NCBI GenBank assembly: GCA_963846025.1
Contig: CAWJUG010000004.1
Span: 250,065-314,064 of the forward strand
Source of the DNA: Terriglobia bacterium
GTDB taxonomy: Bacteria > Acidobacteriota > Terriglobia > Bryobacterales > Bryobacteraceae
Direction of reading: 5' to 3'
Length of the DNA stretch: 64,000 nucleotides
Positions 11,418 through 60,114 of the stretch are shown here, in pieces; the stretch's first letter is position 1; every line of letters begins with the position of its first letter. The position numbers were made by a program, and so were the translations under genes. The notes beneath the pieces are model-generated. The model was not told the origin of the DNA. It saw only the letters and a program-made list of their open reading frames with translations, and did not search any database.

Positions 11418-12054
11418 ATGACATCAAGCAAACCATTTGAAAGCCCGAAGCGTAAGGTGTTGTTTTCAGACGATCACCATATCGTATTAGATGCGCTCTC
11501 TTTTGTGGCACAGGACGAATTTGAGGTTCATGCGGTGGATACCTTAGCCGCGCTCAGGCAGGCAGTCGATGAGTTTGAGTCCTGATCTAATCGTACTCGA
11601 CATCCGTATGCCGGATGGGGACGGCATCGAGGCTGCAAGCCAGATTCTCGCTCGCCATCCCGACGTGAAAATTCTGTTTCTTTCGACTCACAGCGAGCCA
11701 TCGATCGTCAAGCGAGCGCTGGAAACGGGCGCCCTGGGGTACGTCTCTAAGCGAGCCGCGGCGGACGAGTTGATGCTCGCGATACGCACCGTGCTGAATG
11801 GGGGCAAATACGTCGGCGAGCGAATTGACGTTAACACAGAGAATGGGGCAGACGATACGGATCGTGTTTTGACCGAACGGCAGAAGGAGGTTTTGCGGCT
11901 GATTGCGCAGGGTTGCTCCGCAAAGGAAATCGCAAACCGGCTGAATATTTCCGTGCGAACCGCCGAGTTCCACAGAGCTGCCATCATGGACCGGCTGAAA
12001 CTACACTCCACTGCCATGATGACGCGGTATGCAGTAGAAAATGGCCTAGACTAG
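11418..12054 (+). pseudogene. LuxR/NarL-family response regulator with the receiver domain split by a 1-nt frame disruption near 11574-11582
   Basis: Frame A reads KVLFSDDHHIVLDAL...AVDEFES*. Frame A+1 continues PDLIVLDIRMPDGDG...KILFLSTH... and ends in an HTH (TERQKEVLRLIAQGCSAKEIANRLNISVRTAEFH). Removing one T of the TTT run restores ...AVDELSPDLIVLDIRMP. Confidence 0.8.
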
Positions 12055-12101
12055 ACGATCTCGCATCGTGCGCTGGCGTTCGGTTTGTAAACCTGAAAAC
12101 T

Positions 12102-12521
12102 ATGGGATGGCTGGCGTGGGCGTTGCTTTCCGCTTTATTTGCAGCGGCGACTGCAATTTTGGCAAAGCTGGGCGTGGCCGGCACAGACGCTAACTTTGCT
12201 ACGGCCGTGCGTACGTCCGTCGTCGTGGTCTTCACCTGGCTGCTCGCGTTCTTGGCGCGACAGCCGGGCAGCTTCCATGTACCTTCCAGGAATACCTGGC
12301 TTTTTCTCGCGCTGTCCGGGCTAGCCACGGGACTGTCTTGGATTTGCTACTTCCACGCGCTTCAAGTTGGACCCGCATCACGTGTCGCGCCGATCGACAA
12401 ATTAAGCGTTGTTTTCGTCATTCTCTTCGCCGCGTTTTTCCTTGATGAGAGATTGACGCCGGGAAAGGTTATTGGCGGCGCCTTGATCGTCGCCGGGGCC
12501 ATTGCAATTGCTTTCGATTGA
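12102..12521 (+). CDS. EamA/DMT-family small membrane transporter
   Basis: 139 aa from ATG 12102 (MGWLAWALLSALFAAATAILAKLG...) with four to five hydrophobic helices. The longer ORF-track N-terminus overlaps the regulator gene and is not hydrophobic. Confidence 0.7.
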   Translation: MGWLAWALLSALFAAATAILAKLGVAGTDANFATAVRTSVVVVFTWLLAFLARQPGSFHVPSRNTWLFLALSGLATGLSWICYFHALQVGPASRVAPIDKLSVVFVILFAAFFLDERLTPGKVIGGALIVAGAIAIAFD

Positions 12522-14293
12522 CTTTGTTCGCGTACCCTGCGCTGGTTTGTGTGAGGAATCAGCGGCAGCAGGATCTCGGAAGGATATCCCCTTGCATGTA
12601 AGATCGTCTGCCGCGCTTTCGTAAATCTGGTTTCATAGGCGATCGGGCGAACCGAATTCATATTACGGTCAAAACGCGGGAAGTTGCTGCTGGATACTTC
12701 GAGTCGAATGCGATGGCCGCCCGAGAAAACGTAGCTGGTCACGCCCGCATCGATGCTCACCTGATACGGCTGGTTCTTCTTGACGAAAACCGGCTTGGAC
12801 AGCGAAAGACGGTAGCGCAGCCTCTCCATCCCGTCTGCAACCAGTAACGGTCGGCCGTCGGGCTCCACGTCTACCAACTTGGCCGTGAAATCTGTGTCGT
12901 TAACAGAAGTCGATACATACAAAACGACGCGAATGGGGCCGGTGATTTCAATGTCGCTGCTGAGGGGAGCGGAGGTGTAAACCAGGACGTCCGGCCGCTT
13001 TTCGACCGCGCTTTGATCGAGCGGTCCGGGCGGCAGGAGCAGCGGATCACAACAGATTGCGCCGCCGTTAGTAGGAACCGGATTCTTAGGGTCATAGGTA
13101 AATTGATCGGAAGGCGCTTTTCGCACCGGCTGCCATTGCAGCGCACCATCTCCGGACAGAGAGTTGGCATGCCCGCTGCTGTTGAGGTACAGCGGAGTCA
13201 GACGCATCCTGGCTAGCGGCCATTCGTGTTCCTCGCGCCAGATGTTTGGGCCCATGACAAAGATGTGCAGCAGTGCGGAACCTGGTTTGATGCCGGAACC
13301 CACTGGGCTACCCTTTGTCCACCTGTCAAACCAATCCGCTTGCTTGGAGCGAATGGGCAAATTGGCCTGCATTCCGAAATCAACGCTAGGAAATTTTGTT
13401 GCAGGATTGTGGCTCCACGGGCCGATCCAGGTCTCGACCGTTTTGTGCTGTTTGGCTAAACGCGAGAATGCGTCGAGATCACTTTCTACGTATTCATCGA
13501 ACCATCCTCCGAAGGAGAGCACTGGGATTGAGATTTGGCTGAGCTTTTCCCGGATGCTGAGAGCTTTCCAGTATGCGTCGTCGGCAGGGTGAGCCAGCGC
13601 AGCGCGCCACGCCGGTAATACAACGCCTGTTGCTGCCACGTCGGCACTCACGAGAGGGATATGGCCGACATAGGTACTGAATAGCCGCCTCACTTCAGAT
13701 GCTGGAGTGAGATTCTCCGCCAACCAGGAAAGACGATGAGCTATCTGAAGCGCGCCCCCTGAGGAATAGAAGCGGTCGGTGTACTCGTCATCACCGGAAC
13801 ACATAGGTGAGATGGCGACCAGATGCGGATCCTGCTGAACGGCGGCCCACCAATCGGCGATGCCGAGATACGAGCTACCAGCCATTACCACTCGGCCGTC
13901 GGACCATGGCTGTTGCGCAATCCAGTTAATGGTGGCAACGCCATCGGGGCCCTCCTGCTGGGTAGTACCAAGAACGCCTTGTGACGCGTAACGGCCGCGC
14001 ACGTCTTCAATAACAACCGCGTAGCCGCGACGCCGAAAAAAACGGTAGCTCAGCATCGCTTGTAATTTCCGGTTGTAAGGAGTGCGAATGAGAACGGCTG
14101 GCCAGCGTCCCGTCCCGCGCGGCAGAAAAATGTCGGCGGCCAGATTAATGCCGTCGCGCATGGGGACAGAGACCCCGAGTTGTTCTGCAGGAGGAGGGCT
14201 GGCCGGAGGTTTTTTCGATGGGCTTTGAGCGAAAGCGCACGATAGAGTTAGCCAAATCAACGCCGTGATCGCAGTGCGAGCGCCCAAATTCAT
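12362..14293 (-). CDS. CocE/NonD family hydrolase (S15 X-Pro dipeptidyl-peptidase-like), secreted
   Basis: Signal peptide MNLGARTAITALIWLTLSCAFAQ. Alpha/beta-hydrolase region with GSSYLG nucleophile elbow and a C-terminal beta-sandwich. A roughly 65-aa tail extends antisense into the EamA gene. Confidence 0.8.
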   Translation of the reverse strand: MNLGARTAITALIWLTLSCAFAQSPSKKPPASPPPAEQLGVSVPMRDGINLAADIFLPRGTGRWPAVLIRTPYNRKLQAMLSYRFFRRRGYAVVIEDVRGRYASQGVLGTTQQEGPDGVATINWIAQQPWSDGRVVMAGSSYLGIADWWAAVQQDPHLVAISPMCSGDDEYTDRFYSSGGALQIAHRLSWLAENLTPASEVRRLFSTYVGHIPLVSADVAATGVVLPAWRAALAHPADDAYWKALSIREKLSQISIPVLSFGGWFDEYVESDLDAFSRLAKQHKTVETWIGPWSHNPATKFPSVDFGMQANLPIRSKQADWFDRWTKGSPVGSGIKPGSALLHIFVMGPNIWREEHEWPLARMRLTPLYLNSSGHANSLSGDGALQWQPVRKAPSDQFTYDPKNPVPTNGGAICCDPLLLPPGPLDQSAVEKRPDVLVYTSAPLSSDIEITGPIRVVLYVSTSVNDTDFTAKLVDVEPDGRPLLVADGMERLRYRLSLSKPVFVKKNQPYQVSIDAGVTSYVFSGGHRIRLEVSSSNFPRFDRNMNSVRPIAYETRFTKARQTILHARGYPSEILLPLIPHTNQRRVREQSQSKAIAMAPATIKAPPITFPGVNLSSRKNAAKRMTKTTLNLSIGATRDAGPT

Positions 14294-17303: not shown

Positions 17304-18265
17304 ATGATGGCACGGATAATCTGTTTCCTGTTGTTAACGGCTGGCCTGCTCAGCGCGGACACCTTGTTTATGCGCAACGGCAGCCGCGTAGAAGGCAGCT
17401 TCTTAGGCGGAGACGGCAAGTCAGTCCGCTTTCTGGTGGGCAGCCAGGTCAGCACGTATTACGTCTCCGATATCGAATCGATACGATTCGCAAACGGTCA
17501 GCAGGGGACCGCTATGACGGGTTATCCTCAAGAGCCGTCGAATTATCCTTCGCAGCCGAACTATCCTCAAACGCCAAGCAGTCCGCCGGCCGTGAATTAT
17601 CCAGCAACGCCAAATTATCCGCCAGCCGCCGCTGCACCAGCCGCCCCGACGCCCGCCAACGCCGGAAGTTATCCGGCGCCATCTTATCCATCGCCAGCCA
17701 AGGCGGGTCGATGAAGGATATGGTGGTCCTCCAAATTCACCGCAAGCGCCAAGCAATACAGGTCTCGAGGTGCCCTCGGGTACTCAGATTGTTGTGCGCT
17801 TGATCGACCCTGTGAATTCGGAGCGAGACAGCCTGGGCCAAACGTATCGGGCGAGCGTAGACCAGCCGGTAGTGGTCAGCGGTCAAGCTCGTGATTCCGC
17901 GAGGCGCGGACGTAGTGGCGACGCTGATTGATGCGCAGAAATCCGGAAAGATTGAAGGGCGAACGGTTCTCACGCTAGATCTGAAGGCTATTACCGTCAA
18001 TGGACGGACGTACGATATCGTTACCACCGGGGTGCCGGAAGCGAGCGGGTCGCGCGGCGAGCGCTCTGCAAAAGTAATCGGCGGGGCGACGGCGTTGGGC
18101 GCGATTATTGGAGCAGCGGCTGGGGGCGGCAGAGGCGCAGCGATAGGCGCAGGCGCCGGCGCGGGGGCAGGAACAGCCGCTGAAGTAGCTACTTCAGGGC
18201 AGAAGGTCAAAGTGCCTGCGGAAACACGGCTGACATTCACGCTTCAAAACCCGATCGCTCTTTGA
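17304..18265 (+). pseudogene. secreted protein with an NYP/Pro-rich linker and a C-terminal glycine-zipper domain, interrupted by two 1-nt frame disruptions (about 17704-17712 and about 17888-17891)
   Basis: Three consecutive frames read as one protein. First: signal peptide plus SH3-like beta region plus NYP repeats. Second: ...PSGTQIVVRLIDPVNSERDSLGQTYRASVDQPVVVSGQA. Third: VIPRGADVVATLIDAQKSGKIEGR...GAIIGAAAGGGRGAAIGAGAGAGAG. Confidence 0.6.
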
Positions 18266-20156: not shown

Positions 20157-21007
20157 TACAATTTGGTTTTGATGCCGCTATAGATCATCTGCACAGCAAT
20201 AACGCCAACTATGAGGGCAAACCCCCTTCGAAGTAAGGGTACGGGAAGGCGGGGTAGAAATTTTGCGCCGATCAAGGATCCTGACAGCACGCCGAGCATC
20301 ACAGGGAAAACGATGGCCGGGTCGACGTACCCGCGGCTGAGATATAGGCTTGCGCTGGCGGCGGCTGTAACCCCAATCATGAAGTTGCTGGTGGCGGTAG
20401 AAACCTTGAACGGAATTCTCATGGCTTGGTCCATAGCGATCACTTTCAGCGAACCCGAGCCGATTCCGAGCAAGCCAGAGATTGTGCCCGCACCGAACAT
20501 GAGCCCGAAGCCGGTCTTCACGCGATGGACTTGATAAGGCTCGACACGGCTCAACGTGCGATATCCGCCGTTCAGTTGCAACCGGTCTGCAAGAGCATCG
20601 GGAGGCAGCGGTGCTGCTCCCTCTTTGTGTTCGCGGCTAGCCTGCCAAGCCGATTGCAAAAGAATGACGCCAAAAATAACGCTAAGCGCTCCCGTGGGAA
20701 TGTGCGCGCCTAGGAAAGCACCAAAAACAGCGCCTATCGTAGTGGCTATTTCGAGGAACATCCCAATGCGGATACTGGAATAACCATCACGCACATAGGC
20801 AGCGGCGGCGCCAGACGAAGTCGCAATCACCGATACAAGACTGGCGCCAATTGCATAATGCAGATCGACCCCGAGAAACAATGTCAATACGGGCGTAACA
20901 ATGACACCACCGCCCAGCCCAGTCAGCGATCCGACAAAGCCGGCCAACAAAGATGCGGCAAAAACTATGGGGGTGAATTCGGCGCTAGTCATAACAGGGT
21001 CAGACAA
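20156..21007 (-). CDS. TauE/SafE-family sulfite/anion exporter (DUF81)
   Basis: 283-aa polytopic membrane protein with a duplicated Gly-rich helix pattern (GSLTGLGGGVIVTP; GLLGIGSGSLKV). Confidence 0.8.
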   Translation of the reverse strand: MSDPVMTSAEFTPIVFAASLLAGFVGSLTGLGGGVIVTPVLTLFLGVDLHYAIGASLVSVIATSSGAAAAYVRDGYSSIRIGMFLEIATTIGAVFGAFLGAHIPTGALSVIFGVILLQSAWQASREHKEGAAPLPPDALADRLQLNGGYRTLSRVEPYQVHRVKTGFGLMFGAGTISGLLGIGSGSLKVIAMDQAMRIPFKVSTATSNFMIGVTAAASASLYLSRGYVDPAIVFPVMLGVLSGSLIGAKFLPRLPVPLLRRGFALIVGVIAVQMIYSGIKTKL

Positions 21008-21031: not shown

Positions 21032-22190
21032 TTGATAGCCAGGGTACTCATGAAGGCTCTATTATTCTGCTTTGTCCTGCCACTGATCCAAGTTTCCGCT
21101 CAGCAGCTACCAGGTATACAGTCTCCCGAAGTGGGAAACGACGGGCGAGTTACTTTTCGCTTTCGGGACATAAACGGTCAGAAGGTAGTGGTGAATATTG
21201 CCGGAGCGGCGCACCCTCTCGCCATGGAGAAGGACGCCGATGGAGTCTGGTCCGCTACCAGCGAACCGATGGGACCGGATCTCTACAGCTACACATTCGA
21301 TGCGGATGGCGTAACGTTGCTGGACCCTTCGAACTCGTCCATTGTGCCCAATTTACTGGACCCTAGCAGCGTGCTGCATGTTTCTGGCAGCTCGCCGGAA
21401 CCATGGGAACAAACTGACATTCCTCACGGCGAGGTACATCACCATTTCTACAAGTCCGCCATTGTGGGAGACAACCGTGACTTTTACGTCTATACGCCGC
21501 CCGGCTACAAACCGCGCGCCAGCACGCGCTATCCGGTTTTGTATCTTCTGCACGGCTACAGCGATGATGCGAGCGCGTGGACAGCAGTAGGGCACGCAAA
21601 CTGGATTCTCGATATCGCTGATTTCATCAGGACAGGCCCGCCCGATGATTATCGTCATGCCATTGGGTTACGGTGATCCCGCGATAGTGCAGCGCAATGC
21701 GTCGGGGAGCAGCCCCTTTTCAAACGCCACATTACGCGAGAGAAACTTCAATAATTTCCGGGATGCGTTGATCGACGAAGTCATTCCGATGGTTGAGAAA
21801 GATTACAACGTAATTGCAACTCGGGAGTCGCGCGCAATCGCCGGACTTTCCATGGGAGGATCGGAATCGTTGCTAACCGGGTTGAATCGGCTGGATAAAT
21901 TCGCCTGGGTGGCTTCGTTCAGCGCCGGGGGCCTAAGCGATAATTTCGCCACTGATTTCCCTCGATTGAACGCGGCCGCAAATCAAAAGCTGAAGCTGCT
22001 TTGGATTGCGTGCGGCACGGAAGACCGCCTGATCACGCTGAACCGAGGGCTAGTTCAGTGGCTCAAGAGTCAAAACGTCAGTGTCGAGTCGATTGAAACT
22101 CCAGGAATGCACACCTGGATGGTGTGGAGGAGAAATCTGATCAAGCTCGCGCCGCTATTATTTCAGGCGTTGCACGGTCCTGATGAATAA
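21032..22190 (+). pseudogene. esterase (esterase D / enterochelin-esterase-like, with N-terminal E-set domain), 1-nt frame disruption near 21611-21616
   Basis: Frame 1 reads signal peptide ...YPVLYLLHGYSDDASAWTAVGHANWILD. Frame +1 reads SLISSGQARPMIIVMPLGYG...RAIAGLSMGGSESL (GxSxG). Skipping nt 21614 gives ILDSLISSGQARPMIIVMP. Confidence 0.75.
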
Positions 22191-23456: not shown

Positions 23457-24732
23457 GTGCCCCGAAACAGCCGCTTTAACGGGTGGTGGGTGGTCGCAAC
23501 CGCTTTCGTCACCTTCGGCATCGCCGTTGGTATTCCATATTACAATCAATCCTTTTTCTACGACTATTTTCAGAAGACTTTTCATTGGGAGCTCAGCAAG
23601 ATAACACTTGGTTTCCCTTTGGCAGCCATTCTGACAATCTGGGTCGGACCACTACTGATTCCGCACTTCAGTCCACGCAAGCTCATCATTGTCGGCACTG
23701 GACTGACCGCCATCTCGTTTTTCGGCTTCAGCGTGATGAAAGGATCTCTGGTCCTTTACTATTTGCTGTATTTCATCTACACGGTTGGGTACATTTTCAG
23801 TGGCCCAATTCCGCACCAGATACTCGTTTCGTATTGGTTTCGTAGGAAACGGGGCACGGCCATGGGAATCGTTTACGTGGGAGTGGGGTTGTTTGGCGGG
23901 CTGGCGCCATTCTTCATTCGCACCATTACAGCCAGGCATGGCTTTCAAGCGGCGTTGGTGGCAATCGGCGGGGTGATGTTCCTGGCGTGGCCTCTGGCAA
24001 TTTTTTTTCTGAAGGATAAGCCGAGCGATATGGGCCAGTATCCAGACGGTTTGGCAACGCCTCCTGCCGACATCAATGCGGCTCCGCTTGGCTTTCGCTC
24101 ACTTGCTGCGTAGTGGGCCGTTTTGGCTGCTCCTGTTGGGAAGCATCTGTTCCATCGGCTCAATCGGCTCCATCAATTTCCACATGAAATTTGTCTTTCG
24201 CGACGCCGGATATACAAACCAAAGAGTGCTGGACGCCACGTGGGCAGTCGCAACAACATTGATTCTCTGGTCGAGTATCGTGGGACGGTTGAGCATCGGG
24301 TACCTCGCCGATTTCTTTTCGAAAAAGCTGGTGATGACTGCGACGTATTTTGCAGTGGCCGGCACGATTTTGCTGTTGCTATGGGTGAGTCCGTCACACA
24401 AATATTCTTTGTACGTCTTCTCGTTGGTATTCGGATTTTCAATGGGCGCCGATTATTTCCTGATACCGCTCATGGCGGCCGAACAGTTCGGCATCAATAC
24501 TTTGGCCCGGGCCATGGCGATTATTCTGCCGGTGAATACGATAGGACAGACTTGGTGCCCGGAGTTGGTGTCGATTCTACGCGAGCACTTTGCAAGTTAC
24601 GTTGTGCCAATGGAAGTTGTCTTGGCGATTAGCTTGGCGGGAGCCGTTGCAATAGCATTCATGCCGAAACATACTGAGGTACCCGGCACGGCCGAAGGCG
24701 CAGTGCCCATACCGAGTGGGGCGAAAATGTAG
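23457..24732 (+). pseudogene. MFS transporter, 1-nt frame disruption in the central loop near 24090
   Basis: Six TM helices in frame 1 (...PPADINAAPL) and six more in frame +1 (AFAHLLRSGPFWLLLLGS...). Removing one G of GG at 24090-24091 joins them. GTG start at 23457. Confidence 0.8.
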
Positions 24733-42904: not shown

Positions 42905-42951
42905 AACTTTAGGACGAAAGCCGGTTCGAGATCGTGGAAGTGAAACGGGCT

Positions 42952-43622: not shown

Positions 43623-43720
43623 AGGGGTTCCGATATCAACGAAGTGCGGTGCAAGGAAGAAAAATCTAAGAGTTTTCTGCGATTCGGGCCTCGTGCCTGC
43701 CACTTTGAATTCGAGAAGTA

Positions 43721-45544: not shown

Positions 45545-45546
45545 GT

Positions 45547-47166: not shown

Positions 47167-47169
47167 AAT

Positions 47170-48105
47170 TCAAGCCCCCAACAGTTCACCTGGTTCCAGT
47201 TTGTAGCCGTTCACGAACGCGTCAGCCGGCATTTTCTTTTTATCCGCCGGCTGTACTTCCAAAAGCTCGAAGACCGTTCCTTCTCCACATCCCGCAAATA
47301 GGCGTCGATTTCGGACCTGAAGAGTGGCCACGGGAAGATTTTCCTGCTGCGCTGGCTTCCCCCGGGCAATCAGCAACGGCCGTCCTCGAAAGGTAGTGTA
47401 TGCGCCGGGCCAGGGGTTAAATCCTCGCAGTCGATTGTAAATTTCCTGTGCCGTTCGCGACCATTCGACGCGGCCATCCTCTTTCTTCAAAATCGGAGCA
47501 TAAGTCGCTGCCCCGCTATTCTGCTTTTCCGGGACCACAGTTCCCGATTCAATCCTCGCGATCGCTTCAATCAGTAACTTAGCCCCAAGCGGCGCCAGCC
47601 GAGAACTCAGTTCAGGAGCCGTTTCATCTGCTGCAATAGGTACTGCGGATTTCAGCAACATATCACCGGTATCGAGGCCAGCGTCTATTTGCATGATAGT
47701 GACGCCGGTCTCTGACTCGCCATTGGCAATCGCCCATTGAATCGGAGCCGCGCCCCGGTACTTTGGCAGCAGAGAGCCGTGGACGTTCAGAATGCCGAAT
47801 CGCGGAATCTCGATGATGCTCTGCGGGATGATCTGTCCATAACCGACCACGACCATCAGCTCGGGATTAATCCCACGCAACTGCTCGACGGATTCCGGAC
47901 GGCGAATTCGTTCCGGCTGATGCACCTCAAACCCAAGGTTCTTCGCTGCCAGTTTGACGGGCGATTCCGTAAGCTGATTGCCGCGCCCTTTTGGCCGGTC
48001 AGGCTGAGTAAAAACTGCAACTACCTCATGACCGGCCTGCGACACAGCCTCCAGCGAAGGGACAGCAAATTCGGGCGTGCCAAGAAAGACAGTTCTCATG
48101 CGCAA
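47170..48105 (-). CDS. fmt: methionyl-tRNA formyltransferase
   Basis: VFLGTPEFAVPSL, ILNVHGSLLPKYRGAAPIQWAI (HxSLLPxxRG motif). Located downstream of def. Confidence 0.9.
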   Translation of the reverse strand: MRMRTVFLGTPEFAVPSLEAVSQAGHEVVAVFTQPDRPKGRGNQLTESPVKLAAKNLGFEVHQPERIRRPESVEQLRGINPELMVVVGYGQIIPQSIIEIPRFGILNVHGSLLPKYRGAAPIQWAIANGESETGVTIMQIDAGLDTGDMLLKSAVPIAADETAPELSSRLAPLGAKLLIEAIARIESGTVVPEKQNSGAATYAPILKKEDGRVEWSRTAQEIYNRLRGFNPWPGAYTTFRGRPLLIARGKPAQQENLPVATLQVRNRRLFAGCGEGTVFELLEVQPADKKKMPADAFVNGYKLEPGELLGA

Positions 48106-48121
48106 AAGGCCCGAGAAGCTG

Positions 48122-48637
48122 CTAATCCCACTCGCCGGCTTTTTGCATTTTCTTGATTTTGCGGCGTATGATATCGCGCTTGAGCGCGCTGAGGTGATTT
48201 ATAAAGAGGACGCCGTTCAGGTGATCGATCTCATGCTGGAAGGCGCGCGCCAGCAGTTCTTCGCCGTCCAGTTTGATCGTCTCTCCTTTCTCGTTTTGTG
48301 CCCGCACGGCCACTTTGTGTGCACGCGACACCGGTTCCCGGAATCCAGGGATGCTGAGGCATCCTTCTTCGCCGCTCTGCTTGCCCTCGCTGAACACTAT
48401 TTCGGGATTGATGATTACAATCTTTTGATTTTCGTCCTCACCAACGCTGATATCAATTACCGAAATCCGCTTGCTTGTCCCAATCTGTGGAGCCGCCAGG
48501 CCGACGCCTTTCGCGGCGTACATGGTTTCCCACATATCGGAGATCAATTCCCGCAACTCGTGTGTATCAAACTCGGTAACCAGCCCGGCTTTCGTTTCAA
48601 GCACGGGCTCACCATATTTAAGAATCTTTCGAACCAT
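48122..48637 (-). CDS. def: peptide deformylase
   Basis: The three PDF motifs: GVGLAAPQIG, EGCLSIPG, QHEIDHLNG. Confidence 0.9.
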   Translation of the reverse strand: MVRKILKYGEPVLETKAGLVTEFDTHELRELISDMWETMYAAKGVGLAAPQIGTSKRISVIDISVGEDENQKIVIINPEIVFSEGKQSGEEGCLSIPGFREPVSRAHKVAVRAQNEKGETIKLDGEELLARAFQHEIDHLNGVLFINHLSALKRDIIRRKIKKMQKAGEWD

Positions 48638-48640
48638 CGA

Positions 48641-49813
48641 TCAATAACTTCTAACTTGCGCGAGATAACCTTCGTAATTGCGTCGCGTCTCGCCGAGCGA
48701 ATCTCCTCCAAATTTTTCTAAAAAGGCGTGTGCGAGTATCAGAGCGCTCATCGCTTCCCCAATTACTCCCGCTGCGGGCACGACGGCTACATCGCTGCGT
48801 TCATAGGACGCCAGCGCCGGATCGCGACTCGGCAGGTCTACCGACTCCAGCGGCCGCCGTAACGTCGAGATCGGCTTCAAAAATCCTCGAATGACGATGT
48901 CTTCACCGTTCGTGATGCCGCCTTCCAAGCCTCCGGCCCGATTCGACCCGCGAAAGAATTTTCGCTCCTGTTTGTCGTAGTGAATCGTATCCTGGACCGT
49001 TGCTCCGTAGGCGCGCGCCGACTGCTCCGCAGAACCGATTTCACAGCCTTTTACGGCCTGAATCGAAACAATGGCTTGTGCCAGCCGTCCGTCAAGCCGG
49101 GTATCCCATGCGATATGAGACCCCAAACCGGGAGGCACGCCGTGCGCCACTATTTCAAAGATGCCGCCCACGGTGTCTCCGGTGCGATAAGCGTGATCGA
49201 CTGCTTCTTTCATGCGAGTCTCAGTCTCAACGTCAACACAACCGAGTAGCACGTCATCACGTTCGCTCAAGGAGATGAGTTCCTCCCATTCTGCAGGTCT
49301 TTGCAGTTCTACCGGCCCTACCGCCACGACATGACTTAGAATCTCGACACCGAACTCCTTCAAAAATGTTTTTGCTAACGCCCCCAGCGCTACTCGCGCG
49401 GCTGTCTCTCTCGCGCTGGCACGCTCTAAAATATGGCGCGCTTCGCTGAAATTGTATTTGAGGACGCCAGCCAGGTCTGCGTGACCGGGCCGCGGGCGCT
49501 CCAACGGTTTTCCCTTGCCCGTTTCGCCGTCTTCGGCAAAAACCGGCAATGTTCCCGTCCAGTTCTTCCAGTCCTTGTTTTCGATCAATACTGCAATCGG
49601 AGAACCAACCGTCACTGAATTCCGAATACCGGACACGATGTGGACTTGGTCCGTTTCGATCTTCATGCGGCCACCACGGCCATACCCCTGCTGACGTCGC
49701 CATAGCTGCCGGTTGATGTATTCCAGACGGACGGGAACTCCCGCAGGGAGGCCTGTAAGAGTCGCCACCAGGCATTCGCCATGCGACTCCCCCGCGGTCT
49801 CAAAACGCAACAT
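48641..49813 (-). CDS. aroC: chorismate synthase
   Basis: MLRFETAGESHGECLV...GRMKIETDQV...RPGHADL...SARETAARVA are typical AroC signatures. Confidence 0.9.
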   Translation of the reverse strand: MLRFETAGESHGECLVATLTGLPAGVPVRLEYINRQLWRRQQGYGRGGRMKIETDQVHIVSGIRNSVTVGSPIAVLIENKDWKNWTGTLPVFAEDGETGKGKPLERPRPGHADLAGVLKYNFSEARHILERASARETAARVALGALAKTFLKEFGVEILSHVVAVGPVELQRPAEWEELISLSERDDVLLGCVDVETETRMKEAVDHAYRTGDTVGGIFEIVAHGVPPGLGSHIAWDTRLDGRLAQAIVSIQAVKGCEIGSAEQSARAYGATVQDTIHYDKQERKFFRGSNRAGGLEGGITNGEDIVIRGFLKPISTLRRPLESVDLPSRDPALASYERSDVAVVPAAGVIGEAMSALILAHAFLEKFGGDSLGETRRNYEGYLAQVRSY

Positions 49814-49870
49814 TAAGTAACTACATGGTAACGAACAGGTTCACGCCGAAAACTGCAATTTGGCAGGCGT

Positions 49871-51395
49871 TTGCGGCCCGGTATGCATGGGATAATCCAA
49901 TTGAGCGGAAGAGATTTGACCGATTTGGGAACGTTGGCCGCAAACCGGGTAAAGATGGTGGTGCGGCAGGCGGTACGGCGTAGATTTGCGGTTGTTGCCA
50001 TTGAACAACTGGCGTTCGCGCTTGCGCCCGTACTCGGCGGCTTAGTAATCCTGTTATTGGCTGGCACTCAAATTCTTCATTGGTATTGGTTGGCTCTGCT
50101 GGCCGTAGCTGGCATAATCATCGCGGCCATTCGCATTCGCGCCCGCAGCCTTTCGCATTACCAAACCGCCCAGCTTCTAGACAAGCGCCTGCGTTTAGAC
50201 GATTCGCTTTCGACTGCCTGGTTCCTGCTCGAAAAAGGTGGTAGTAGACGAAACGGACTTGCAGCTTTGCAATTACGACAGGCGGAAGACGTTGCCGCCG
50301 GCACTGAACCGGCGCTGGCCTTTCCGCTGGTCTGGAATCGGGCCTGGGCACTCACAGGCGCATTGGTGGCAATCGCGTTCGGGCTCTTTGTAGTCCGTTA
50401 TCTGGTTACCAGAAGCCTCAGCCTGGAGCAGTCCCTCATTCCTGTTCAGATTGCGCCGGTTTTCGAACGGCTCGAGAATCACTTATTCGCGGCCAATCGA
50501 TTGCCTGGTGATGCGTCGGCTAGCGGCCGCGCCCAGCAGAATGCCGCCCAAGCTGCCCAGTTGCCGGATCAGAAGACGGTGGACGTTTCCCAGAGCGAGG
50601 GCGAAGAAGCAGGACAGTCAACTGATCCGAACGGGAAAGCTGGATCAAGAAGTCAGGCCGCGACAGACAAAAATGGCAAACAGCAAGACGGTGACAATCA
50701 GAACCGCGATGTAGATTCCGCTAATGCGCAGGCGGGCGGGAAAACCTCCGATCAGCCAGCGGGAAACCAAACGAGCGCCCAAAAAGGCGAGCCTAAACCA
50801 CAAGCGTCCGGCGGACAACAAGGCGGTCAGAGTGCCATGGACAAGATGAAGGACGCCTTGTCCAGCTCTAATGGCCAAAATGCGCCAGAATTCAACCCCG
50901 CAAGCGCAGCAGGACGGACGGCCGTCCGACGAAGATAAAGCCGCGAGTCAGAACTCGGGAAAAGCTCAACCTGGCCAGCAACAGGATGCGCGCAATCAGC
51001 AGTCCAGCCAGGATCAGAGTTCGGAAGGCCAGCCGCAAGGGCAAACCGCTGAGCGCACGCAAGCTTCGCAAGGCCACAGTTCCGACTCCATGCCCGAAAA
51101 AGGCGCCGACGCGCACTCTGGTATCGGCCGTCAAGATGGCGATAAGGACGTCAAAGAAGCTGAACAACTGCAGGCCATGGGTAAGCTGGCCGAGATCATC
51201 GGCAAGCGCTCTGCCAACCTGACTGGCGACATGATGATCGAAACGCCATCCGGCAAGCAGCAGTTGAAAACGGCTTACACGCAGAAACTCGGCCACCATT
51301 CTGATTCAGGCGGAGAGATCAATCGCGATGAGATTCCGCTCGCCGACCAGCAGTACGTGCGCGAATACATGGAACTGGTTCGCAAGCAGGCGTAA
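49871..51395 (+). pseudogene. membrane protein with a long Gln/Gly/Ser/Asp-rich low-complexity region, 1-nt frame disruption near 50868-50871
   Basis: Frame 1 reads TM helices plus a low-complexity region ending ...MDKMKDALSS. Frame +1 continues MAKMRQNSTPQAQQDG... to a conserved-looking end (IPLADQQYVREYMELVRKQA). Start uncertain (49871 TTG or 49955 ATG). Confidence 0.5.
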
Positions 51396-51411
51396 GCCGG
51401 AACGATAAGTT

Positions 51412-52455
51412 TCACTTCTTATCCCGTGTCTCCAGAACCGATTGCGCGTAGTAGTTGATCACTTTCGCCTCGCTACGCGCGACTTCATAAAAGGCGGCAC
51501 GCAGCACCTGCTCTTTACCCTGGAACAGTCCCTGCCGAATCTCTTCCTGCACTCTAGGGTCACTCAGTTCGCGTTGGCCCGCCGGCTCTTTTGCAATCAG
51601 TTTGATGATGCGATAGCCTTCCGGCGTGTGAATCACCGGCGATACCTGTCCTGGAGTCATCCCTAAAATCAACTTGCGTAATTCTGGATTCGCTTGGCCC
51701 AGTGCGGATTCCGGCACAAAGCCGATATCGCCGCCGTTAGCCGCGAATTGGTCTTCAGAGTAGTTCTGCGCCAACGTACCGAAGTCCTCGCCCTGTCGTA
51801 TACGCAGCTCAAGCATATTGATCTTGTTTTGCGCCTGCGCATCGTTCTGTGCCTTGTCGTTCTTGAGATTGCTCACCGTCGCCTCCGGCGCGGGAGTCAC
51901 TAGAATTTGCGCCAGACGAACTTTATTCTCCGGAAGGTTGAAGCTAGCTTTATTCGCGTTATAAAAATCGGCCACTTCTTTGTCAGTGATGGTGATATGG
52001 GAGCCAATCTCCTTATTGAAGAGCTTTTGCACGCTCAACTCGCGCCGGATCTGCGCTTTCAGGTCGGCAACTGACATTTTTCGCTGCTGCAGCAGCTTTT
52101 GAAACTCTTCCTGGGTATAGGGCGCCTTCAGCTCATTGAACTTCGCGTCCACGTCGGCATCAGAGGCAAGCAGTCCTTCTTTTTCTGCACGCTGTAGAAA
52201 GATCTCGTTATCGATCAACGTTCTTAGCGCCTCAAGCCGCACGCCCGTGGTCTGGTCGGAACCCGTCTTCAATGGCGAATTTGGAAACTGCGCGGCCATA
52301 GCGCGATCTAAAGCCGCATACGCGATGGGCCGGCCATTGACGGTAGCGGCAACATCCGGCGAGACCGGTTTGTGACAGCCGGCCAGCAACGCGGCCAGCG
52401 CGCCGGATAAGACGAGCGGAATTCGCAAACCGCCGCTCTTCCTGGAATTACCCAT
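51412..52455 (-). CDS. SurA/PrsA-like lipoprotein with a parvulin PPIase domain
   Basis: Lipobox LLAGC. Chaperone-like N-terminal domain. Parvulin segment RLAQILV...GGDIGFVPESALGQANPELRKLILGMTPGQVSPVIHTPEGYRIIKL. Confidence 0.75.
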   Translation of the reverse strand: MGNSRKSGGLRIPLVLSGALAALLAGCHKPVSPDVAATVNGRPIAYAALDRAMAAQFPNSPLKTGSDQTTGVRLEALRTLIDNEIFLQRAEKEGLLASDADVDAKFNELKAPYTQEEFQKLLQQRKMSVADLKAQIRRELSVQKLFNKEIGSHITITDKEVADFYNANKASFNLPENKVRLAQILVTPAPEATVSNLKNDKAQNDAQAQNKINMLELRIRQGEDFGTLAQNYSEDQFAANGGDIGFVPESALGQANPELRKLILGMTPGQVSPVIHTPEGYRIIKLIAKEPAGQRELSDPRVQEEIRQGLFQGKEQVLRAAFYEVARSEAKVINYYAQSVLETRDKK

Positions 52456-53433
52456 CTAACTAGCTTTGACTTTCTTTATTTCTTCAACCAGCGCAGGCAC
52501 GACGTCAAAAAGGTCGCCCACTATGCCGTAATCGGCGGTCTCGAAAATAGGGGCGTTCTCGTCCTTGTTGATCGCTACTACTGTCTTTGATCCCTTCATT
52601 CCCACCAGATGCTGAATGGCGCCAGAGATCCCAACCGCGAAGTACACTTTTGGAGCCACAGTCTGCCCAGAACTTCCCACCTGGCGCTCCATCGGTAGCC
52701 AACCGTTATCGCATATCGGGCGTGAGGCAGCTAATTCAGCCCCTAGCGCTTCAGCGAGAGCTTCGACGATCGGCAAGTTATCTTTTTCCTTGATCCCGCG
52801 GCCCACCGATACAATCATGTCCGCAGCACTCAGGTCAACCGAGCGTTGCGCCTCCCGGAACGGTGGCTCCGGCTTGCTACGAATCTGTGATGCGTCCAGA
52901 TTAACGCTAAACTGCTCAACAGGGGCCTCGGATGCCTGCGGCTCCTGCGCGCGAAATGCGCCGGCCTGAACGGAAGCGAACTGCGGATAACCGCTTACGC
53001 CGATATCGGCGTTCAGCTTGCCTTGAAACAACTGGCGGACAAACTCAACGGACGTCCCATCCACTTTAAGATCTATGACATCACTGACGAGTGGCCGCCC
53101 AAAACGCGTCGCCAGCTTCGGAGCAAAGTCGCGCACTTGATACGTGTGCGGGAAAAGAACATATTTTGGCTGCTTCGATCGAATGAGTTGCTCCAGCGCA
53201 GCCGTATAGCCATCGGGTGTGTAGTCGGCGAGTAATGGATGGTTGATTGAGTAGGCCTTGGCTACACCGAATTGGGCGGCTTCAGAAGCTAACGCATCGA
53301 TTTCTGCGCCAGTAACAACGGTTTCCAACGGTACGCCGGCTGCTTCAGCGATCTTCTTGCCTGCCGAAAGCACTTCGAACGAGATGCGGTTCCACTTGCC
53401 GCCACGTTGCTCCAGAACCACAAGAACGCTCAT
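52456..53433 (-). CDS. etfA: electron transfer flavoprotein alpha subunit
   Basis: C-terminal FAD-binding segment QVGSSGQTVAPKVYFAVGISGAIQHLVGMKGSKTVVAINKDENAPIF. Confidence 0.9.
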   Translation of the reverse strand: MSVLVVLEQRGGKWNRISFEVLSAGKKIAEAAGVPLETVVTGAEIDALASEAAQFGVAKAYSINHPLLADYTPDGYTAALEQLIRSKQPKYVLFPHTYQVRDFAPKLATRFGRPLVSDVIDLKVDGTSVEFVRQLFQGKLNADIGVSGYPQFASVQAGAFRAQEPQASEAPVEQFSVNLDASQIRSKPEPPFREAQRSVDLSAADMIVSVGRGIKEKDNLPIVEALAEALGAELAASRPICDNGWLPMERQVGSSGQTVAPKVYFAVGISGAIQHLVGMKGSKTVVAINKDENAPIFETADYGIVGDLFDVVPALVEEIKKVKAS

Positions 53434-54200
53434 ATCACTCTCGCTTCGAATTTCAGCTTTTCAACGAGCTGTTTGGCCACCTGCTTGGCATCTCCAGTCA
53501 AGATCTGCGATTGCTTGCTTCGCTGCGGTAAATAAACGTGGTCCACACTGGCGGGTGAAATTGCATCAACGCCCAACTGCGCAGCAGGAATCGTTTTGAC
53601 TTCTTTTGTTTTCGCTTTCTTGATGCCCATCAAGGTCGCGTAGCGAAGCTTCTTGATGCCGGATTGAATTGTCAGCAGAACAGGAAGCGGCAGCACGATG
53701 TTCTGAAACCATCCGTCCTCGAGTTCGCGCTTCACGAGCACCGCATTCCCCTGCGGTTCCACTTGCATAACGATGGTCGCGTGCGCGAAGCCGAGCAGTT
53801 CCGCCATTACAACCCCAGTTTGCCCGTATCCGAGATCGTCAGATTGCAGGCCGGTGAGAACGTAATCCGGCGCTTCGGGCGCAATCGCCTGGGCTAACAG
53901 GCGAGCCGTCGCGAGAGCGTCGAGCACCACTCTCTGATCCATTTCAACGTGAATGGCGCGGTCGGCGCCTTTCGCCAGCGCTTCACGGATGGTTTGCGCC
54001 GCCCGCTGCGGGCCCAAGCATAAGACGACGACTTCTCCGCCAAGTTTTTCCTTCAACTGCAGCGCCTCTTCGAGTGCGTAGGCGTCCGGCTCGTTCATCT
54101 CGTAGGCAAGGTCGGATTCGTCCAGCCATTTCCCTTGGGCGTCGACTCGCAGCACCGAGTCGCGGGCAGGCACCTGCTTCACAGATACGATGATTTTCAT
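53430..54200 (-). CDS. etfB: electron transfer flavoprotein beta subunit
   Basis: MKIIVSVKQVPARDS...NEPDAYALEEALQLKE... 4-nt overlap with etfA. Confidence 0.9.
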   Translation of the reverse strand: MKIIVSVKQVPARDSVLRVDAQGKWLDESDLAYEMNEPDAYALEEALQLKEKLGGEVVVLCLGPQRAAQTIREALAKGADRAIHVEMDQRVVLDALATARLLAQAIAPEAPDYVLTGLQSDDLGYGQTGVVMAELLGFAHATIVMQVEPQGNAVLVKRELEDGWFQNIVLPLPVLLTIQSGIKKLRYATLMGIKKAKTKEVKTIPAAQLGVDAISPASVDHVYLPQRSKQSQILTGDAKQVAKQLVEKLKFEARVI

Positions 54201-54303
54201 TGATTAACGGCGCCGCTCGCGTGTGGCACGGGCATGCGCATCTCTTCCAGTATGCAGGACGCCTGTTCTTCCCAAAGCGAGTTGTAAATTGCCGATTAAT
54301 TCG

Positions 54304-54376
54304 TGGGCCCTGAAGGATTTGAACCTTCGACCAAAGGATTATGAGTCCTCTGCTCTAACCGCTGAGCTAAGGGCCC
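54304..54376 (-). tRNA. tRNA with anticodon CAT (likely tRNA-Ile2, lysidine-modified; alternatively elongator Met)
   Basis: Manual cloverleaf: acceptor GGGCCCT/AGGGCCC, D-arm GCTC-AGCGGTTA-GAGC, anticodon arm GAGGA-CTCATAA-TCCTT, T-arm GAAGG-TTCAAAT-CCTTC, discriminator A. CCA is not encoded. Confidence 0.85.
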
Positions 54377-54454
54377 GCAACGTCTAAGAAACTGCCTAGA
54401 AACGCCTACTTCGGCGGCTTGGCTGCCAGGCTCTGAAGCGATAGTAACAAAGCT

Positions 54455-55664
54455 TCAGCCGAAAAGCCGCTTCTGCATTTTCTCGAACGCGCCGACGATT
54501 TCGCTCTGTTTCGAGTGGCGGCCATTCGCGATCACCTGCACGCCGCCAACAAAGACGTCACGAATCGCTGCCCGTTGGGCAGAAAAAATAAGTTGCGTAG
54601 CTAAACTACTGCCCTCACATCCCGCAAGCGAAGGATCTTTCAAATCAACTGTAAAATAGTCGCGTTGATCGGGAACAACACCTAGCGCGCGAGATCCGGC
54701 CTCGGTGGCGCCTCGATATAACTCGGCTGCTGGCAAAATCGCGCGGGAGAGCTTCTTCATGCGCAGGTGATATTCCAGACAGCGCGCATCTTCCAATAGA
54801 TCGATCTGCACGTTGCTGTCGGTTCCGAAGCAAATGTACGCACCGGCTTCCAGCAACACGTCCGCAGGGACGGTACCATCGCCCAAATTGCGCTCAGTAG
54901 TCGGACAGGCGCATACCGTACAGTGAGTCGAGCCCAAGTAGCCTACTTCGCGTTGAGTGATATGTATGGCATGAACGGCTGTGAACTCTTCGCCGAGAAT
55001 TCCATGCTCATCGAGTAATTCGACAGGCCGGCGGCCGTGTTCCGCGACGCATGCTTCAATCTCAGCCGGTTGCTCGGCCACGTGCATGTGAACCGGCAAC
55101 CTGTTCAACCGCGCGAATTTCGTGATCGCCAGCAGAGAGTCCAGCGTGAGGGCGCGCACGCTGTGAGGTGCAATTCCAATCGGTGCCTCCGCCTCTCTCA
55201 AAAGCTCGTCCGTGTCCTCCAGGAACGTATCGACATTCCGAAAGGTGAATCTGTTCTGCAATGGATCGCCGGGTTTACGCCAGCCCGCGCGTTCGTAAGC
55301 CGCTTGCAGTACGACAATTCGAATGCCCACGTCCTGTGCCGCCCGAATCACCTGGTTCGCGAGCAGGTTCGGGTCTTCATAATGAGCTGCCATCCGGGGC
55401 ATGGTGTAGATAATGAAACTCGCCGACAGTGGTAATGCCCGCCATCAGCATCTCCATGTACGCCATGCGCGCTACATCATAGATGTCCTCTGGCGACAAC
55501 TGGCTTGCAGCGCGATACATGGCTTCCCGCCAACTCCAGAAGTCGTCGGTACTTGCCGCGCTGCGGTGCTCCGTCCGCCCCCGAATCACACGCTGAAAGG
55601 CGTGTGAGTGCGCATTCACCAAGCCCGGAACTGATGCGTAGTTACCGTTTATGACAGGAAGCAT
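54455..55664 (-). pseudogene. hutF: formimidoylglutamate deiminase (HutF)-like amidohydrolase, 1-nt frame disruption near 55388-55398
   Basis: N-terminal frame reads GLVNAHSHAFQRVIRGRTE...GEFHYLHHAPDG. The +1 frame continues AAHYEDPNLLANQVIRAAQDVGIR...HMHVAEQPAEIEAC... Located at the end of the hut operon. Confidence 0.8.
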
Positions 55665-56933
55665 TAAAGCGGGCTAGCTCCGCCGCCATCATCGCGAGCG
55701 TATGCGACGTCTCCGCCGATGTACACACTCGTCGCAAGTTCCACACCCACAAAATATGGAATCTCGCGGTAATCTTCGCAATCGTAAATGGCGAAATCGG
55801 CGCGCTTGCCTGGTTCCAATGAGCCTATTTGATCGCCTCGGCATAGGCTATATGCCGGGTTGATGGTCGCTGCTGTAATCGCTTCAGCGGGCGTCATGCG
55901 CATATGGGTACAAGCAAGTGACAGCACAAACGGCATGGACGGCGTCGGCGAAGAACCGGGATTGAAATCCGTCGCGAGCGCCACTGCCAAACCAGCTTCG
56001 ATCATCTGCCTCGCCGGCGCGAAGCCGCTCAGCCCCAAGCTGTAGACGGATGCCGGGCAACAATACCGGTTGTACGCCGGCTGCTGCAAGCGCTTCGATT
56101 CCATGATCGTCTATCTGTTCCAAATGATCCGCCGTCACAGTTCGTAACTGCGCCGCAAGCTCTGCACCGCCATTCCTGGAGAGTTGATCGGCGTGGATGC
56201 GCAGGCGAAGCCCCAACTCGCGAGCCTGCGTTAAGATCGCTCGCGATTGCTCTATGCTGAATGCGCCTCTTTCGCAAAACACATCGCAGTATTCTGCGAG
56301 CTCATGATGCGCAACCGCAGGCAACATCTCATTGATGATCAGATCCACATAATCGTCCGGGCGCTCCCGGTACTCATCGGGTATGTCATGCGCCCCGAGA
56401 AATGTCGGAACATATTGGAGCTCCCGTATGACACGAAGCATCTTCAGTTCCGCTTGAGTTGTTAATCCATAACCCGATTTCGCCTCGACGGTTGTGGTGC
56501 CACAACGGGTAAACCAACTTGCATAACGGCGCGAAGTTTCTAATAGGGCGTCTTCGATCGCCTTGCGGGTTTTTGCGACTGTAGAAAGAATGCCCCCGCC
56601 CGCCGCTGCGATCTCCTCGTAGCTCTCGCCCTGGGCGCGCCTTTCATACTCGTCAACGCGAGTGCCTGCAAATACGGCATGCGTGTGCGCGTCAACAAAG
56701 CCCGGCAGCAGCACCCCGCCGGCGGCATCGATCACCGGGATCTGATCGTCAATCTGCTGCTCAATCTCGCTCTGCGGCCCGATCACCTCAATGGTGCCGT
56801 CGCGCACCAGCATCGCTCCGCGCTCGATGATCGAGAGTTCTTGCATCTCGTCTCGCCTGCGCGGCCGATCCGGCCCGGCTAGCGTTACAACCTGTGCGCA
56901 ATTGATGATCGCAAGAAAAGTGGATTCTTCCAT
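55664..56933 (-). pseudogene. hutI: imidazolonepropionase, 1-nt frame disruption at the CCC/GGG run about 56053-56057
   Basis: LPGFVDAHTHAVFAG...EAKSGYGL...RIHADQLS...GVQPVLLP, then frame +1 continues [39 protein letters not shown] 56933 shares one nt with the hutU stop. Confidence 0.85.
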
Positions 56934-58592
56934 CAGCGAGACATCGGAATGCGAAGTCCTTTTTCGCGGGCTACCTGCTCGGCGCGCGGGTAGCCTGCGT
57001 CCACATGCCGCATGATACCCGAGCCAGGATCGGTGGTCAGCACTCGCTGCAGACGCCGGTCGGCATCTGCGGAGCCATCCGCCACCACAACCATTCCGGC
57101 ATGCAGAGAATAGCCGATCCCGACACCGCCGCCATTGTGAATAGAGACCCAAGACGCGCCTGCTGCGGTATTGAGCAGGGCGTTCAACAATGGCCAGTCC
57201 GCAATCGCATCGGACCCATCTTGCATGCCCTCTGTTTCCCGATACGGCGAAGCTACCGATCCGGCATCTAAGTGGTCGCGACCAATCACAATCGGTGCGC
57301 TAATTTCTCCGGAGCGCACCAAGGCATTCATGGCCAGGCCGAACTCCGCCCGTTCGCCGTACCCTAACCAGCAGATGCGCGCGGGTAAACCCTGGAAGTG
57401 GATCTTCTCGCTCGCCAGCCGAATCCATTGCGCAAGATCTTTGTTGTTACCGAACATGTCGAGAACAAGCCGGTCCGTCCTGCGAATGTCTTGGGGGTCT
57501 CCCGACAACGCCACCCATCGGAAGGGACCTCGCCCTTCGCAGAACATCGGCCGTATGTATTCGGGAACAAACCCGGGAATCTGAAATGCGTCCTTTGCTC
57601 CGGCGTTTTGCGCATGCGCGCGAATGTTATTGCCGTAATCGAAAGCAATTGCTCCTGCGCGTTGAAGCGCCAGCATACCTTCCACATGCTTCGCCATGGC
57701 TTCAGTCGATCTTGCAACGTATTCTTCGGGATTGCGTTTTCGCAAAGCAAGCGCTCGTTCCAGGCTCATTCCGTTTGGCACATAGCCGTTCAAAGGATCG
57801 TGTGCACTGGTTTGATCGGTCACAATGTCGGGGACCAGGCCGCGGCGCGCCAACTCGGGGATCACGTCGGCGCAATTCGCAACCAGGCCGACGGAAAGTG
57901 CGTCGCCGAGAGACTTTGCGTCATCGAGCGCGGATAGAGCCTCATCCAAGTCACGCACCAATCGGTCGCAATAGCCGGTTCGCACGCGCTTCTCAATTCG
58001 TGCCGAGTCCACATCGATACCCAGAAACAACGCGCCGTTCAGGGTCGCTGCCAAGTGGTTGAGCGCCGCCCATGCCGCCCATTCCGCCGCTGACGATGAG
58101 CTTCCGCTTGAGATCGCCGCCGAAATGCTTTCGCCCCGCTGCGGCAAATGTCTCATACGTCCCCTGAACAATGCCCTGACTGCCGATGTAGATCCAAGAG
58201 CCCGCGGTCATTTGACCGTACATGGTCAGCCCGAGCTTTTCGAGACGATGAAACTCATTCCAGTTCGACCATTTGCCCACCAGGTTGGAGTTCGCAATCA
58301 AAACACGAGGCGCGTCCGCATGTGTTCGAAAGATTCCGACCGGCTTCCCCGATTGCACAAGCAGCGTCTCGTCGTTTTCGAGTTCCTGTAGCGACCTGAC
58401 CAGCGCATCGAAGCATTCCCAGTTGCGCGCGGCCTTGCCCGTCCCGCCGTAGACAATCAATTCATCCGGTTTTTCGGCCACATCAGGATCAAGATTGTTC
58501 ATCAGCATCCGCATGGCGGCTTCCTGATGCCAGCCTTTGCAAGTCAGATTCGTTCCCCGCGGCGCTTTCACTTTCAAGGCAATCTCGTTCAT
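56933..58592 (-). pseudogene. hutU: urocanate hydratase, 1-nt frame disruption at about 58051-58052
   Basis: N-terminal frame reads ...[24 protein letters not shown]...[13 protein letters not shown]. The +1 frame continues [22 protein letters not shown]...[13 protein letters not shown]. Confidence 0.9.
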
Positions 58593-58606
58593 TTGAGCTT
58601 CCTCTG

Positions 58607-60114
58607 CTACGCCGTAAACTCGTCGAAGCCGCCGCCTTGAATTGCCATTGCTATCGTTTCAATGTCACGCGATAGGGGCCGATCAGCCGTCAGTCGCGGA
58701 ACCGTGCTACGTATCAGCTCGTGTGCCTTCTCGACCGGCGGCGACGAGCGCAACGGCGCGCGATATTCCAATCCTTCCGCTGCTGCCAGTAACTCAATGG
58801 CGAGTACGTGCTCCGCATTAGAAACAATTTCGCGCAACTTGACGGCTGCTGTCATGCCCATAGAAACATGATCTTCCTTATCGCCCGACGTTGGCACGTT
58901 GTCAATACTCGCCGGATGCGCCAGCACCTTCGCCTCATTCAGCAACGACACAGCGCAGACCTGCGCAATCATGAAACCCGATGACAGGCCGGGATGCGAC
59001 GACAGAAATGGCGGCAATCCTTCGTTGACATCGGGATTCACCAACCGGTCAATACGCCGCTCTCCGATACTCATTAGATCGGTCATGGCGATGCATGCAT
59101 AATCGAAAGCCATCGCCAGCGGCGCGCCATGAAAATTGCCGCCGCTCAACATGTCGCCATTTTCGAAAACCAGCGGATTGTCGGTTGCTGAGCCGCTCTC
59201 GATCTCAACCACTGTTCGCGCATGCTCCAAGGCATTACGAACCGCCCCGTGCACTTGTGGCATGCAGCGCAAACTATAGGCGTCTTGCACGCGCGGATCG
59301 TTCACCAGATGAGAACGCCGGATCTCGCTGTTTTCGAGCAGCCGCTCTCAAATGCGCGGCCGATGCAACCTGTCCAGGATGTGGCCGAACCGCATGAATG
59401 CGTTCGTCAAAGGCCACCGGGGTACCGCGCAGCGCCTCCAGCGTCATTGCGCCGGCCAGATCGGCCAACGCCAGCCACGCGCAACCCGCGATAGAGCGCA
59501 AGCGCGCCCACCGCACCCATGGCCTGTGTTCCGTTGAGAAGCGCCAGTCCCTCTTTAGCGCCGAGACGTACAGGTTCAAGGCCCGCCGATCGCAACGCAG
59601 CCGCACTGGTAATGCGCTCTCCCCGATACCAGCATTCGCCTTCGCCTATCATCGAAAGCGCCAGATGGGCAAGTGGGGCCAGATCGCCGCTCGCGCCCAC
59701 CGAACCTTTTTCCGGTATAACGGGGTGCACGCCGCGCTCCAGCATTTCAAGAAGCGTTTCGATTATGCGGGTGCGGCAGCCGCTATAACCCAAAGTCAGG
59801 ACATTCGCGCGTAACAGCATCATCGCGCGGGTCTCCGGCTCCGAAAGAGGCCGGCCTAGTCCGCACGAATGACTGCGAACCAGATTCAGTTGCAGCGCTT
59901 CCAGATCCGCCGGCGCGATGCGCACTTCCGAAAGTTTCCCGAACCCTGTATTGATGCCGTAGACGACACGGCCTTCTTCGATGACGCGATCGACCAGCGC
60001 GCGTGAAGCGGCAACCCGCTCGCGAGCGGCCGAACTCAAACGGACATTCAACCGGCCCGCGGCAACGGCCGCGATCTGCTCTAGAGAAAGTAGCTGTCCG
60101 GAAAGCTCCAACAT
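58607..60114 (-). pseudogene. hutH: histidine ammonia-lyase, two 1-nt frame disruptions (about 59485-59487 and about 59342)
   Basis: MIO-forming [14 protein letters not shown]. Three successive frames read ...[18 protein letters not shown] / [46 protein letters not shown] / [33 protein letters not shown]... Confidence 0.9.

Follow-up and report, generated by a model that had tools for sequence, protein, structure and literature searches.

Insertion-biased single-base errors, rather than gene decay, as the probable cause of 14 frame breaks in a Terriglobia metagenome-assembled genome

Gene decay in bacteria is normally deletion-biased and mixed in size, and the collapsing of haplotypes can leave consensus artefacts where a site is heterozygous or strain-polymorphic. 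In Nanopore assemblies of isolates, errors are usually deletions in homopolymers (PMC12007338), and the long-read metagenome-assembled genomes (MAGs) of Microflora Danica come from a pipeline that took only Nanopore reads through Flye and a single Medaka round, the authors noting signs of error in low-coverage MAGs (PMC12313526). The stretch analysed here (the window, 64,000 nucleotides) covers positions 250065-314064 of contig C4 in G000, the assembly of a Terriglobia bacterium (13 contigs, 4.0 Mb, 56% G+C). A sequence-only reading of the window had noticed 14 frame disruptions in 12 conserved genes, among them argJ and the hut operon, and had ascribed them to insertion-biased sequencing or consensus error. 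This explanation is supported by contigs from an independent soil run (X1), by a control on the same-genus genome G010 and by a genome-wide ratio of 35:1 between the two directions of frame change. We hold with high confidence that the 14 breaks are insertion-biased single-base consensus errors in a MAG and not gene decay, and in the living organism these genes are very probably unbroken.

Open reading frames (ORFs), taken from stop to stop in the syntenic regions of same-genus genomes, were aligned to the window by tblastn. For each break, three times the orthologue span was subtracted from the window span, and one base at a time was removed and the translation rescored (removal scan). The same-genus genomes referred to by label are G002, G003, G005 and G010, of which G010 is complete and forms one contig. 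The features concerned, with the position of each extra base, are as follows.

11418-12054, + strand: NarL/LuxR-type response regulator; one extra base near 11572-11576
17304-18265, + strand: Gly-zipper (YMGG-like) protein; two +1 breaks, at or before 17713 and at 17883-17890 (refined to 17886-17890)
21032-22190, + strand: putative esterase; one extra base at about 21614 (tblastn interval 21613-21622)
23457-24732, + strand: MFS transporter; one extra base within 24086-24100 (tblastn interval 24067-24100)
31850-33476, - strand: conserved membrane protein, earlier called 'ArnT-like'; one extra base within 32707-32712 (tblastn interval 32707-32734)
33905-35159, + strand: HlyD-type membrane-fusion protein; one extra base within 34504-34509 (tblastn interval 34501-34510)
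45987-47166, - strand: argJ; one extra base at 46455-46456 (tblastn interval 46445-46459)
49871-51395, + strand: Gln-rich protein; one extra base at 50866-50868 (tblastn interval 50863-50871) and a second at 51389
54455-55664, - strand: hutF-like amidohydrolase; extra base 55388 (tblastn interval 55381-55389)
55664-56936, - strand: hutI; one extra base within 56053-56057 by the removal scan (tblastn interval 56022-56062)
56933-58604, - strand: hutU; extra base 58055 (tblastn interval 58047-58056)
58607-60114, - strand: hutH; two extra bases, at about 59471-59473 (tblastn interval 59467-59476) and about 59345-59346 (tblastn interval 59341-59370)
60118, no strand: extra base in the spacer before hutH, 4 nt from its start codon; the X1 contig is without it, and no gene is broken

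All 14 disruptions were seen as two-frame orthologue alignments, and at the break positions the orthologues in the same-genus genomes are single open frames. As had been stated from the sequence, the downstream part is read in the +1 frame; by ORF coordinates modulo 3, it is one base ahead of the upstream part in 12 of the 12 ORF pairs that can be paired directly. The further claim that each disruption amounts to a single extra base also holds, with all length differences congruent to +1 modulo 3 and a most frequent value of exactly +1; because of this commonest value, the change is one base added and not two lost. The agreement in direction, 14 of 14, had been judged improbable by chance, and the two-sided binomial p is indeed 1.2e-4; no '-1' break was found within the window. 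The best single-base repair in the removal scan lies at most about 15 nt from each coordinate first proposed, the largest offsets being those of the upstream hutH break (59471-59473, earlier 59485-59487) and of the MFS break (24100, earlier 24090-24091), and the junctions offered as examples for hutU and for the 'ArnT-like' gene, there called a glycosyltransferase, hold on inspection.

The same frame change recurs from reference to reference, with thirteen references for argJ, four to six for each hut gene, three to seven each for the MFS, esterase and HlyD genes, and one intact orthologue of 505 aa for the 'ArnT-like' gene. The argJ alignments pass from frame -2 to -3 in all thirteen, with a length excess of mostly exactly 1. 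The esterase passes from frame 2 to 3 in seven references (best removal 21614), and HlyD makes the same change in six, with HlyD_3 found in the second piece. Frames -3 and then -1 were obtained for hutF in six references, for hutU in six (length excess exactly 1 in five) and for hutI in five, while hutH runs through frames -2, -3 and -1 in four, its positions being taken from the removal scan. The MFS break is seen in four +1 alignments (three on the coding strand, one an opposite-strand shadow) and was also detected from G010. The 505-aa orthologue of the 'ArnT-like' protein comes from G010 (L110) and gives frames -3 and -1, with high-scoring segment pairs (HSPs) of 201 and 264 bits. For the LuxR regulator, the orthologue aligns in frames 3 and 1 with HSPs of 45 and 231 bits; the tblastn break is at 11575, and the best removal is 11572. 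The Gly-zipper protein reads in frames 3, 1 and 2 against L030, its second break being supported by 4 references, and the Gln-rich protein in frames 2 and 3 against same-genus orthologues by tblastn.

Pfam model coordinates run on from one piece to the next in five of these genes. MFS_1 is split into positions 107-180 and 195-343, the Esterase model into 1-36 and 59-246, and Amidohydro_1 in hutF into 3-61 and 63-300; in the response regulator, the second piece begins at position 42 of Response_reg and continues with GerE. The ArgJ model is spread over two pieces, 2-220 and 238-377 of 377, which bears out the earlier remark that housekeeping genes are affected. In addition, Gly-zipper_YMGG was found in the last piece of its gene and in the intact orthologue. 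The Gln-rich protein matched no Pfam family, even with the intact orthologue as query. Likewise, neither the pieces nor the intact orthologue of the 'ArnT-like' protein gave a Pfam match, and this name could not be verified. Both of these proteins, encoded at 31850-33476 (-) and 49871-51395 (+), are kept throughout the genus.

The bias extends over the whole assembly. ORFs from 800 kb of G010 were aligned to all of G000 under strict and lax thresholds, and in a reverse control G000 ORFs were aligned to G010 in an otherwise identical test. The strict thresholds gave 35 '+1' breaks and 1 '-1' break in 388 kb aligned, and the lax thresholds gave 45 and 7; the genome-wide direction bias has a binomial p of about 1e-9. 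The breaks are spread over 10 of the 13 contigs; their rate averages about 0.9 per 10 kb and is 2.1 per 10 kb for the contig of the window. Between the window and its orthologues, the length difference was exactly +1 in 26 of 52 events and -2 in 3. In the control, G010 showed 0 '+1' breaks and 1 '-1' break in 347 kb, which shows that the bias is not produced by the method. These counts supply two checks that the sequence-only reading had proposed, comparison with a finished relative and a genome-wide count of indel direction, and both came out in its favour.

The genes broken elsewhere in G000 include aceE, asnS, feoB, a Mrp/ApbC-type protein and DNA ligase. Similarly, ileS is broken at C2:59446-59456: its model positions 2-688 fall in one frame and 685-857 in another, displaced by a single base. 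No break was seen in secA or valS. There is no excess of in-frame stops: 1 internal stop was counted in 286 kb of well-aligned coding sequence of G000, against 4 in the control. The same direction is seen in G005 and G002, few-contig, marker-poor MAGs of the genus, with +1 to -1 ratios of 15:2 and 14:5, and their +1 breaks fall at sites other than those in G000. In G002, in-frame stops also occur in clusters that resemble paired nearby shifts, and the hutU of G005 (L003) has an in-frame stop between 3566 and 3570.

Independent sequence came from X1, a public soil run in which 35% of the words sampled from 50500-60400 occur and which was compared with the window over 40500-60400. Its short contigs are mostly 95-100% alike to the window, with 139 substitutions. 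Only 4 single-base indels separate the two; in every case the base is in the window and not in the contig, and the reverse was seen 0 times. The bases concerned are 51389, 55388, 58055 and 60118; the second coincides with the break predicted in hutF and the third with the one predicted in hutU. A further proposed check, against independent sequence, thus agrees with an artefact, with a strain 97-99% identical being without the window base at 4 of 4 indel differences. Since 60118 lies in a spacer, such bases also occur outside genes. Base 51389 alters the last residues of the Gln-rich protein, which ends in ...RKQA with it and in ...RKQRKPER without it. The stretch 40500-60400 (20 kb) holds at least 9 extra bases. 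The substitutions that make up the difference of about 1-3% between X1 and the window are chiefly transitions and C/G swaps, and X1 indicates that several strains of the species co-exist in the soils of that study.

One part of the earlier description does not stand. The extra base had been said to come usually from a homopolymer of 2-4 nt; however, of the two frame-breaking sites placed to the nucleotide, 55388 is a T flanked by C and G and 58055 is a G flanked by A and T, and at none of the 14 junctions does a run exceed 3 bases. It is not supported that the extra bases are mainly homopolymer-length errors. The sequence at two of the sites suggests another origin. At the hutU site, CCA-C-TTG, dropping either of the neighbouring bases leaves TTG or CTG, both Leu, and at the hutF site, GG-C-A-GCT, dropping either leaves GGC or GGA, both Gly. 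The soil population is apparently polymorphic, and the consensus may write both alleles in tandem at some polymorphic positions. That tandem-written alleles account for the dominance of insertions is a tentative suggestion drawn from these two sites, and we consider it rather doubtful; against it stand the small number of sites, two only, and base 51389, which would mean a Gln/Arg pair, or GG for a correct G.

The nearest public relatives of G000 are Bryobacteraceae/Acidobacteriota MAGs, many of them named MFD...bin, a name that marks the Microflora Danica long-read catalogue. Judging from these relatives, from the contiguity in 13 contigs and from the origin in a 2024 soil study, G000, a soil bacterium of the Bryobacteraceae/Acidobacteriota group, is a probable product of a Nanopore-only pipeline of the same kind.

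Taken together, an artefact is supported because the lesions are of a single class, essential genes are among those broken, the breaks are spread over most contigs and the bases are absent from near-identical DNA. Under this explanation, most contigs would carry an extra base about every 2-10 kb, whether in a gene or in a spacer, and each one inside a gene would move the reading frame by +1. Several observations weigh on the other side. The X1 contigs come from a related population 1-3% different, at a depth of 2.6-4.5, and are not the reads behind the assembly; they resolve only 2 of the 7 breaks claimed within 40500-60400. The platform of G000 is deduced from relatives and contiguity. The pattern of insertions is opposite to the usual Nanopore profile: in place of the typical deletions in homopolymers there are 35 insertions and 1 deletion, and 55388 and 58055 lie outside homopolymers, so the technical cause is not established. 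Two individual breaks are also weak points, namely that of the LuxR gene, whose N-terminal piece reaches 45 bits only, and the first one of the Gly-zipper gene (approximately 17700-17713), which has one reference and adjoins a low-complexity length difference.

The alternative that fares best is real gene decay by insertion-biased mutation, for instance in a mutator strain or in a genome that is shrinking. The deposited sequence does contain the breaks, and at 4.0 Mb G000 is smaller than its relatives (5-7.9 Mb). However, rpoB, rpoC and gyrA have no match in any of the 13 contigs, so the small size is at least partly incompleteness; G000 misses whole regions despite a marker completeness of 92%. 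Decay would also have had to strike ileS, asnS, aceE and argJ, to add exactly one base in nearly all events and to leave in-frame stops at no more than the control frequency. Furthermore, a population 97-99% identical lacks the extra bases, and G005 and G002 share the bias at different sites. Based on these points, we regard gene decay as very improbable.

Even less likely is that the organism truly carries the extra bases and bypasses them, whether through programmed +1 ribosomal frameshifting, through a special tRNA that decodes four bases or through RNA-level correction. Breaks that all point one way, as is seen, are what any of these would produce. Yet no motif is common to the 14 junction sequences, neither a stop nor a recurring codon stands at the shift, and the 41 tRNAs that ARAGORN found in the incomplete assembly all have three-base anticodons, with no enlarged anticodon loop. 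The sites are not conserved, the orthologues being intact there; the complete genome G010 has no such breaks; extra bases also lie in a spacer and at the last codons of a gene; and near-identical contigs do without them. It is equally hard to credit that the lineage carries these bases in its DNA and tolerates them at many unrelated sites, essential genes included, through some +1 correction in transcription or translation. Finally, frame arithmetic alone cannot tell +1 from -2, but two-base deletions are barely conceivable here, with 26 of 52 length differences at +1 against 3 at -2 and with X1 showing one base fewer, not two more.

The breaks have no biological significance, and the hut operon, argJ and the other genes are to be treated as intact. 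G000 serves as a species representative in a public genome collection. An extra base in roughly every 2-10 kb distorts its pseudogene calls, short-ORF lengths, coding density and marker-based completeness, and the sister MAGs G005 and G002, at least, are affected likewise. A homopolymer-aware correction would miss these errors, which are insertions and often lie outside homopolymers. If collapsed strain polymorphism is the cause, many long-read soil MAGs could be affected.

Several candidates were set aside. A count of overlapping same-strand ORF pairs, made without references, gave about as many +1 as -1 pairs in both G000 and the control and was swamped by shadow ORFs. Two '-1' candidates, at 12956-12968 and 20912-20993, proved to be frame changes in the reference MAGs G003 and G005, the window genes being intact. 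G003 has frame errors of its own, because its locus L119:7937-9868, the orthologue of the intact window gene at 12362-14293, reads in three pieces (frames -2, -3 and -2). A '+1' candidate at 48114-48122 (+) is the shadow of the fmt/def boundary on the opposite strand, with fmt, def and aroC intact, and the overlapping ORFs at 4017-6252 (-), which might pass for a split gene, are two complete epimerase genes. The genes rpoB, rpoC and gyrA could not serve as test genes, being absent from the assembly.

As sources of independent sequence, runs X2 and X3 gave only conserved fragments of other organisms. A tRNA-Met (CAT) gene at window positions 54303-54376 (-) sits between ABC-like genes and hutF and is 93-99% identical in same-genus genomes and 86-96% identical in same-order genomes; the high depth of unrelated X2 and X3 contigs in the bin that holds it is due to this conserved gene. 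A search for same-species contigs in JGI metagenomes and species-representative genomes gave a best hutU match of 87% amino-acid identity, too distant for comparison at the level of bases. Among the 41 tRNAs of G000 there is no tRNA-Ile, a further sign that whole regions are missing. A tRNA-SeC was found; the organism probably uses selenocysteine, and in-frame TGA codons in G000 need caution because of this tRNA.

Compared with described systems, the locus resembles decaying genomes such as those of Mycobacterium leprae and recent symbionts in its many frame-disrupted genes and its comparatively small assembly, but differs in having one class of lesion, hits in essential genes and no excess of nonsense changes. 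With programmed +1 frameshifting of the prfB type and with the genome-wide +1 frameshifting of Euplotes it shares shifts that are all +1, whereas here a slippery or stop-adjacent motif is lacking, orthologues do not keep the sites, no tRNA supports the shift and the bases are absent from near-identical DNA. Artefacts of haplotype collapse are similar in that the population is polymorphic at 1-3% and the hutU and hutF sites can be read as two synonymous alleles in tandem; the difference is that only two sites are clean and that 51389 does not fit. Indel errors of long-read assemblies (Nanopore or PacBio), as measured by IDEEL-type ratios or corrected by tools such as Kastor (PMC12007338), are for Nanopore reported mostly as homopolymer deletions, whereas about 35 of 36 changes here are insertions, some at non-homopolymer positions. 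The likeness is that in both cases indels of one base turn up across the whole genome, interrupt genes that are conserved or essential, do not appear in accurate reads and lower the marker-based completeness.

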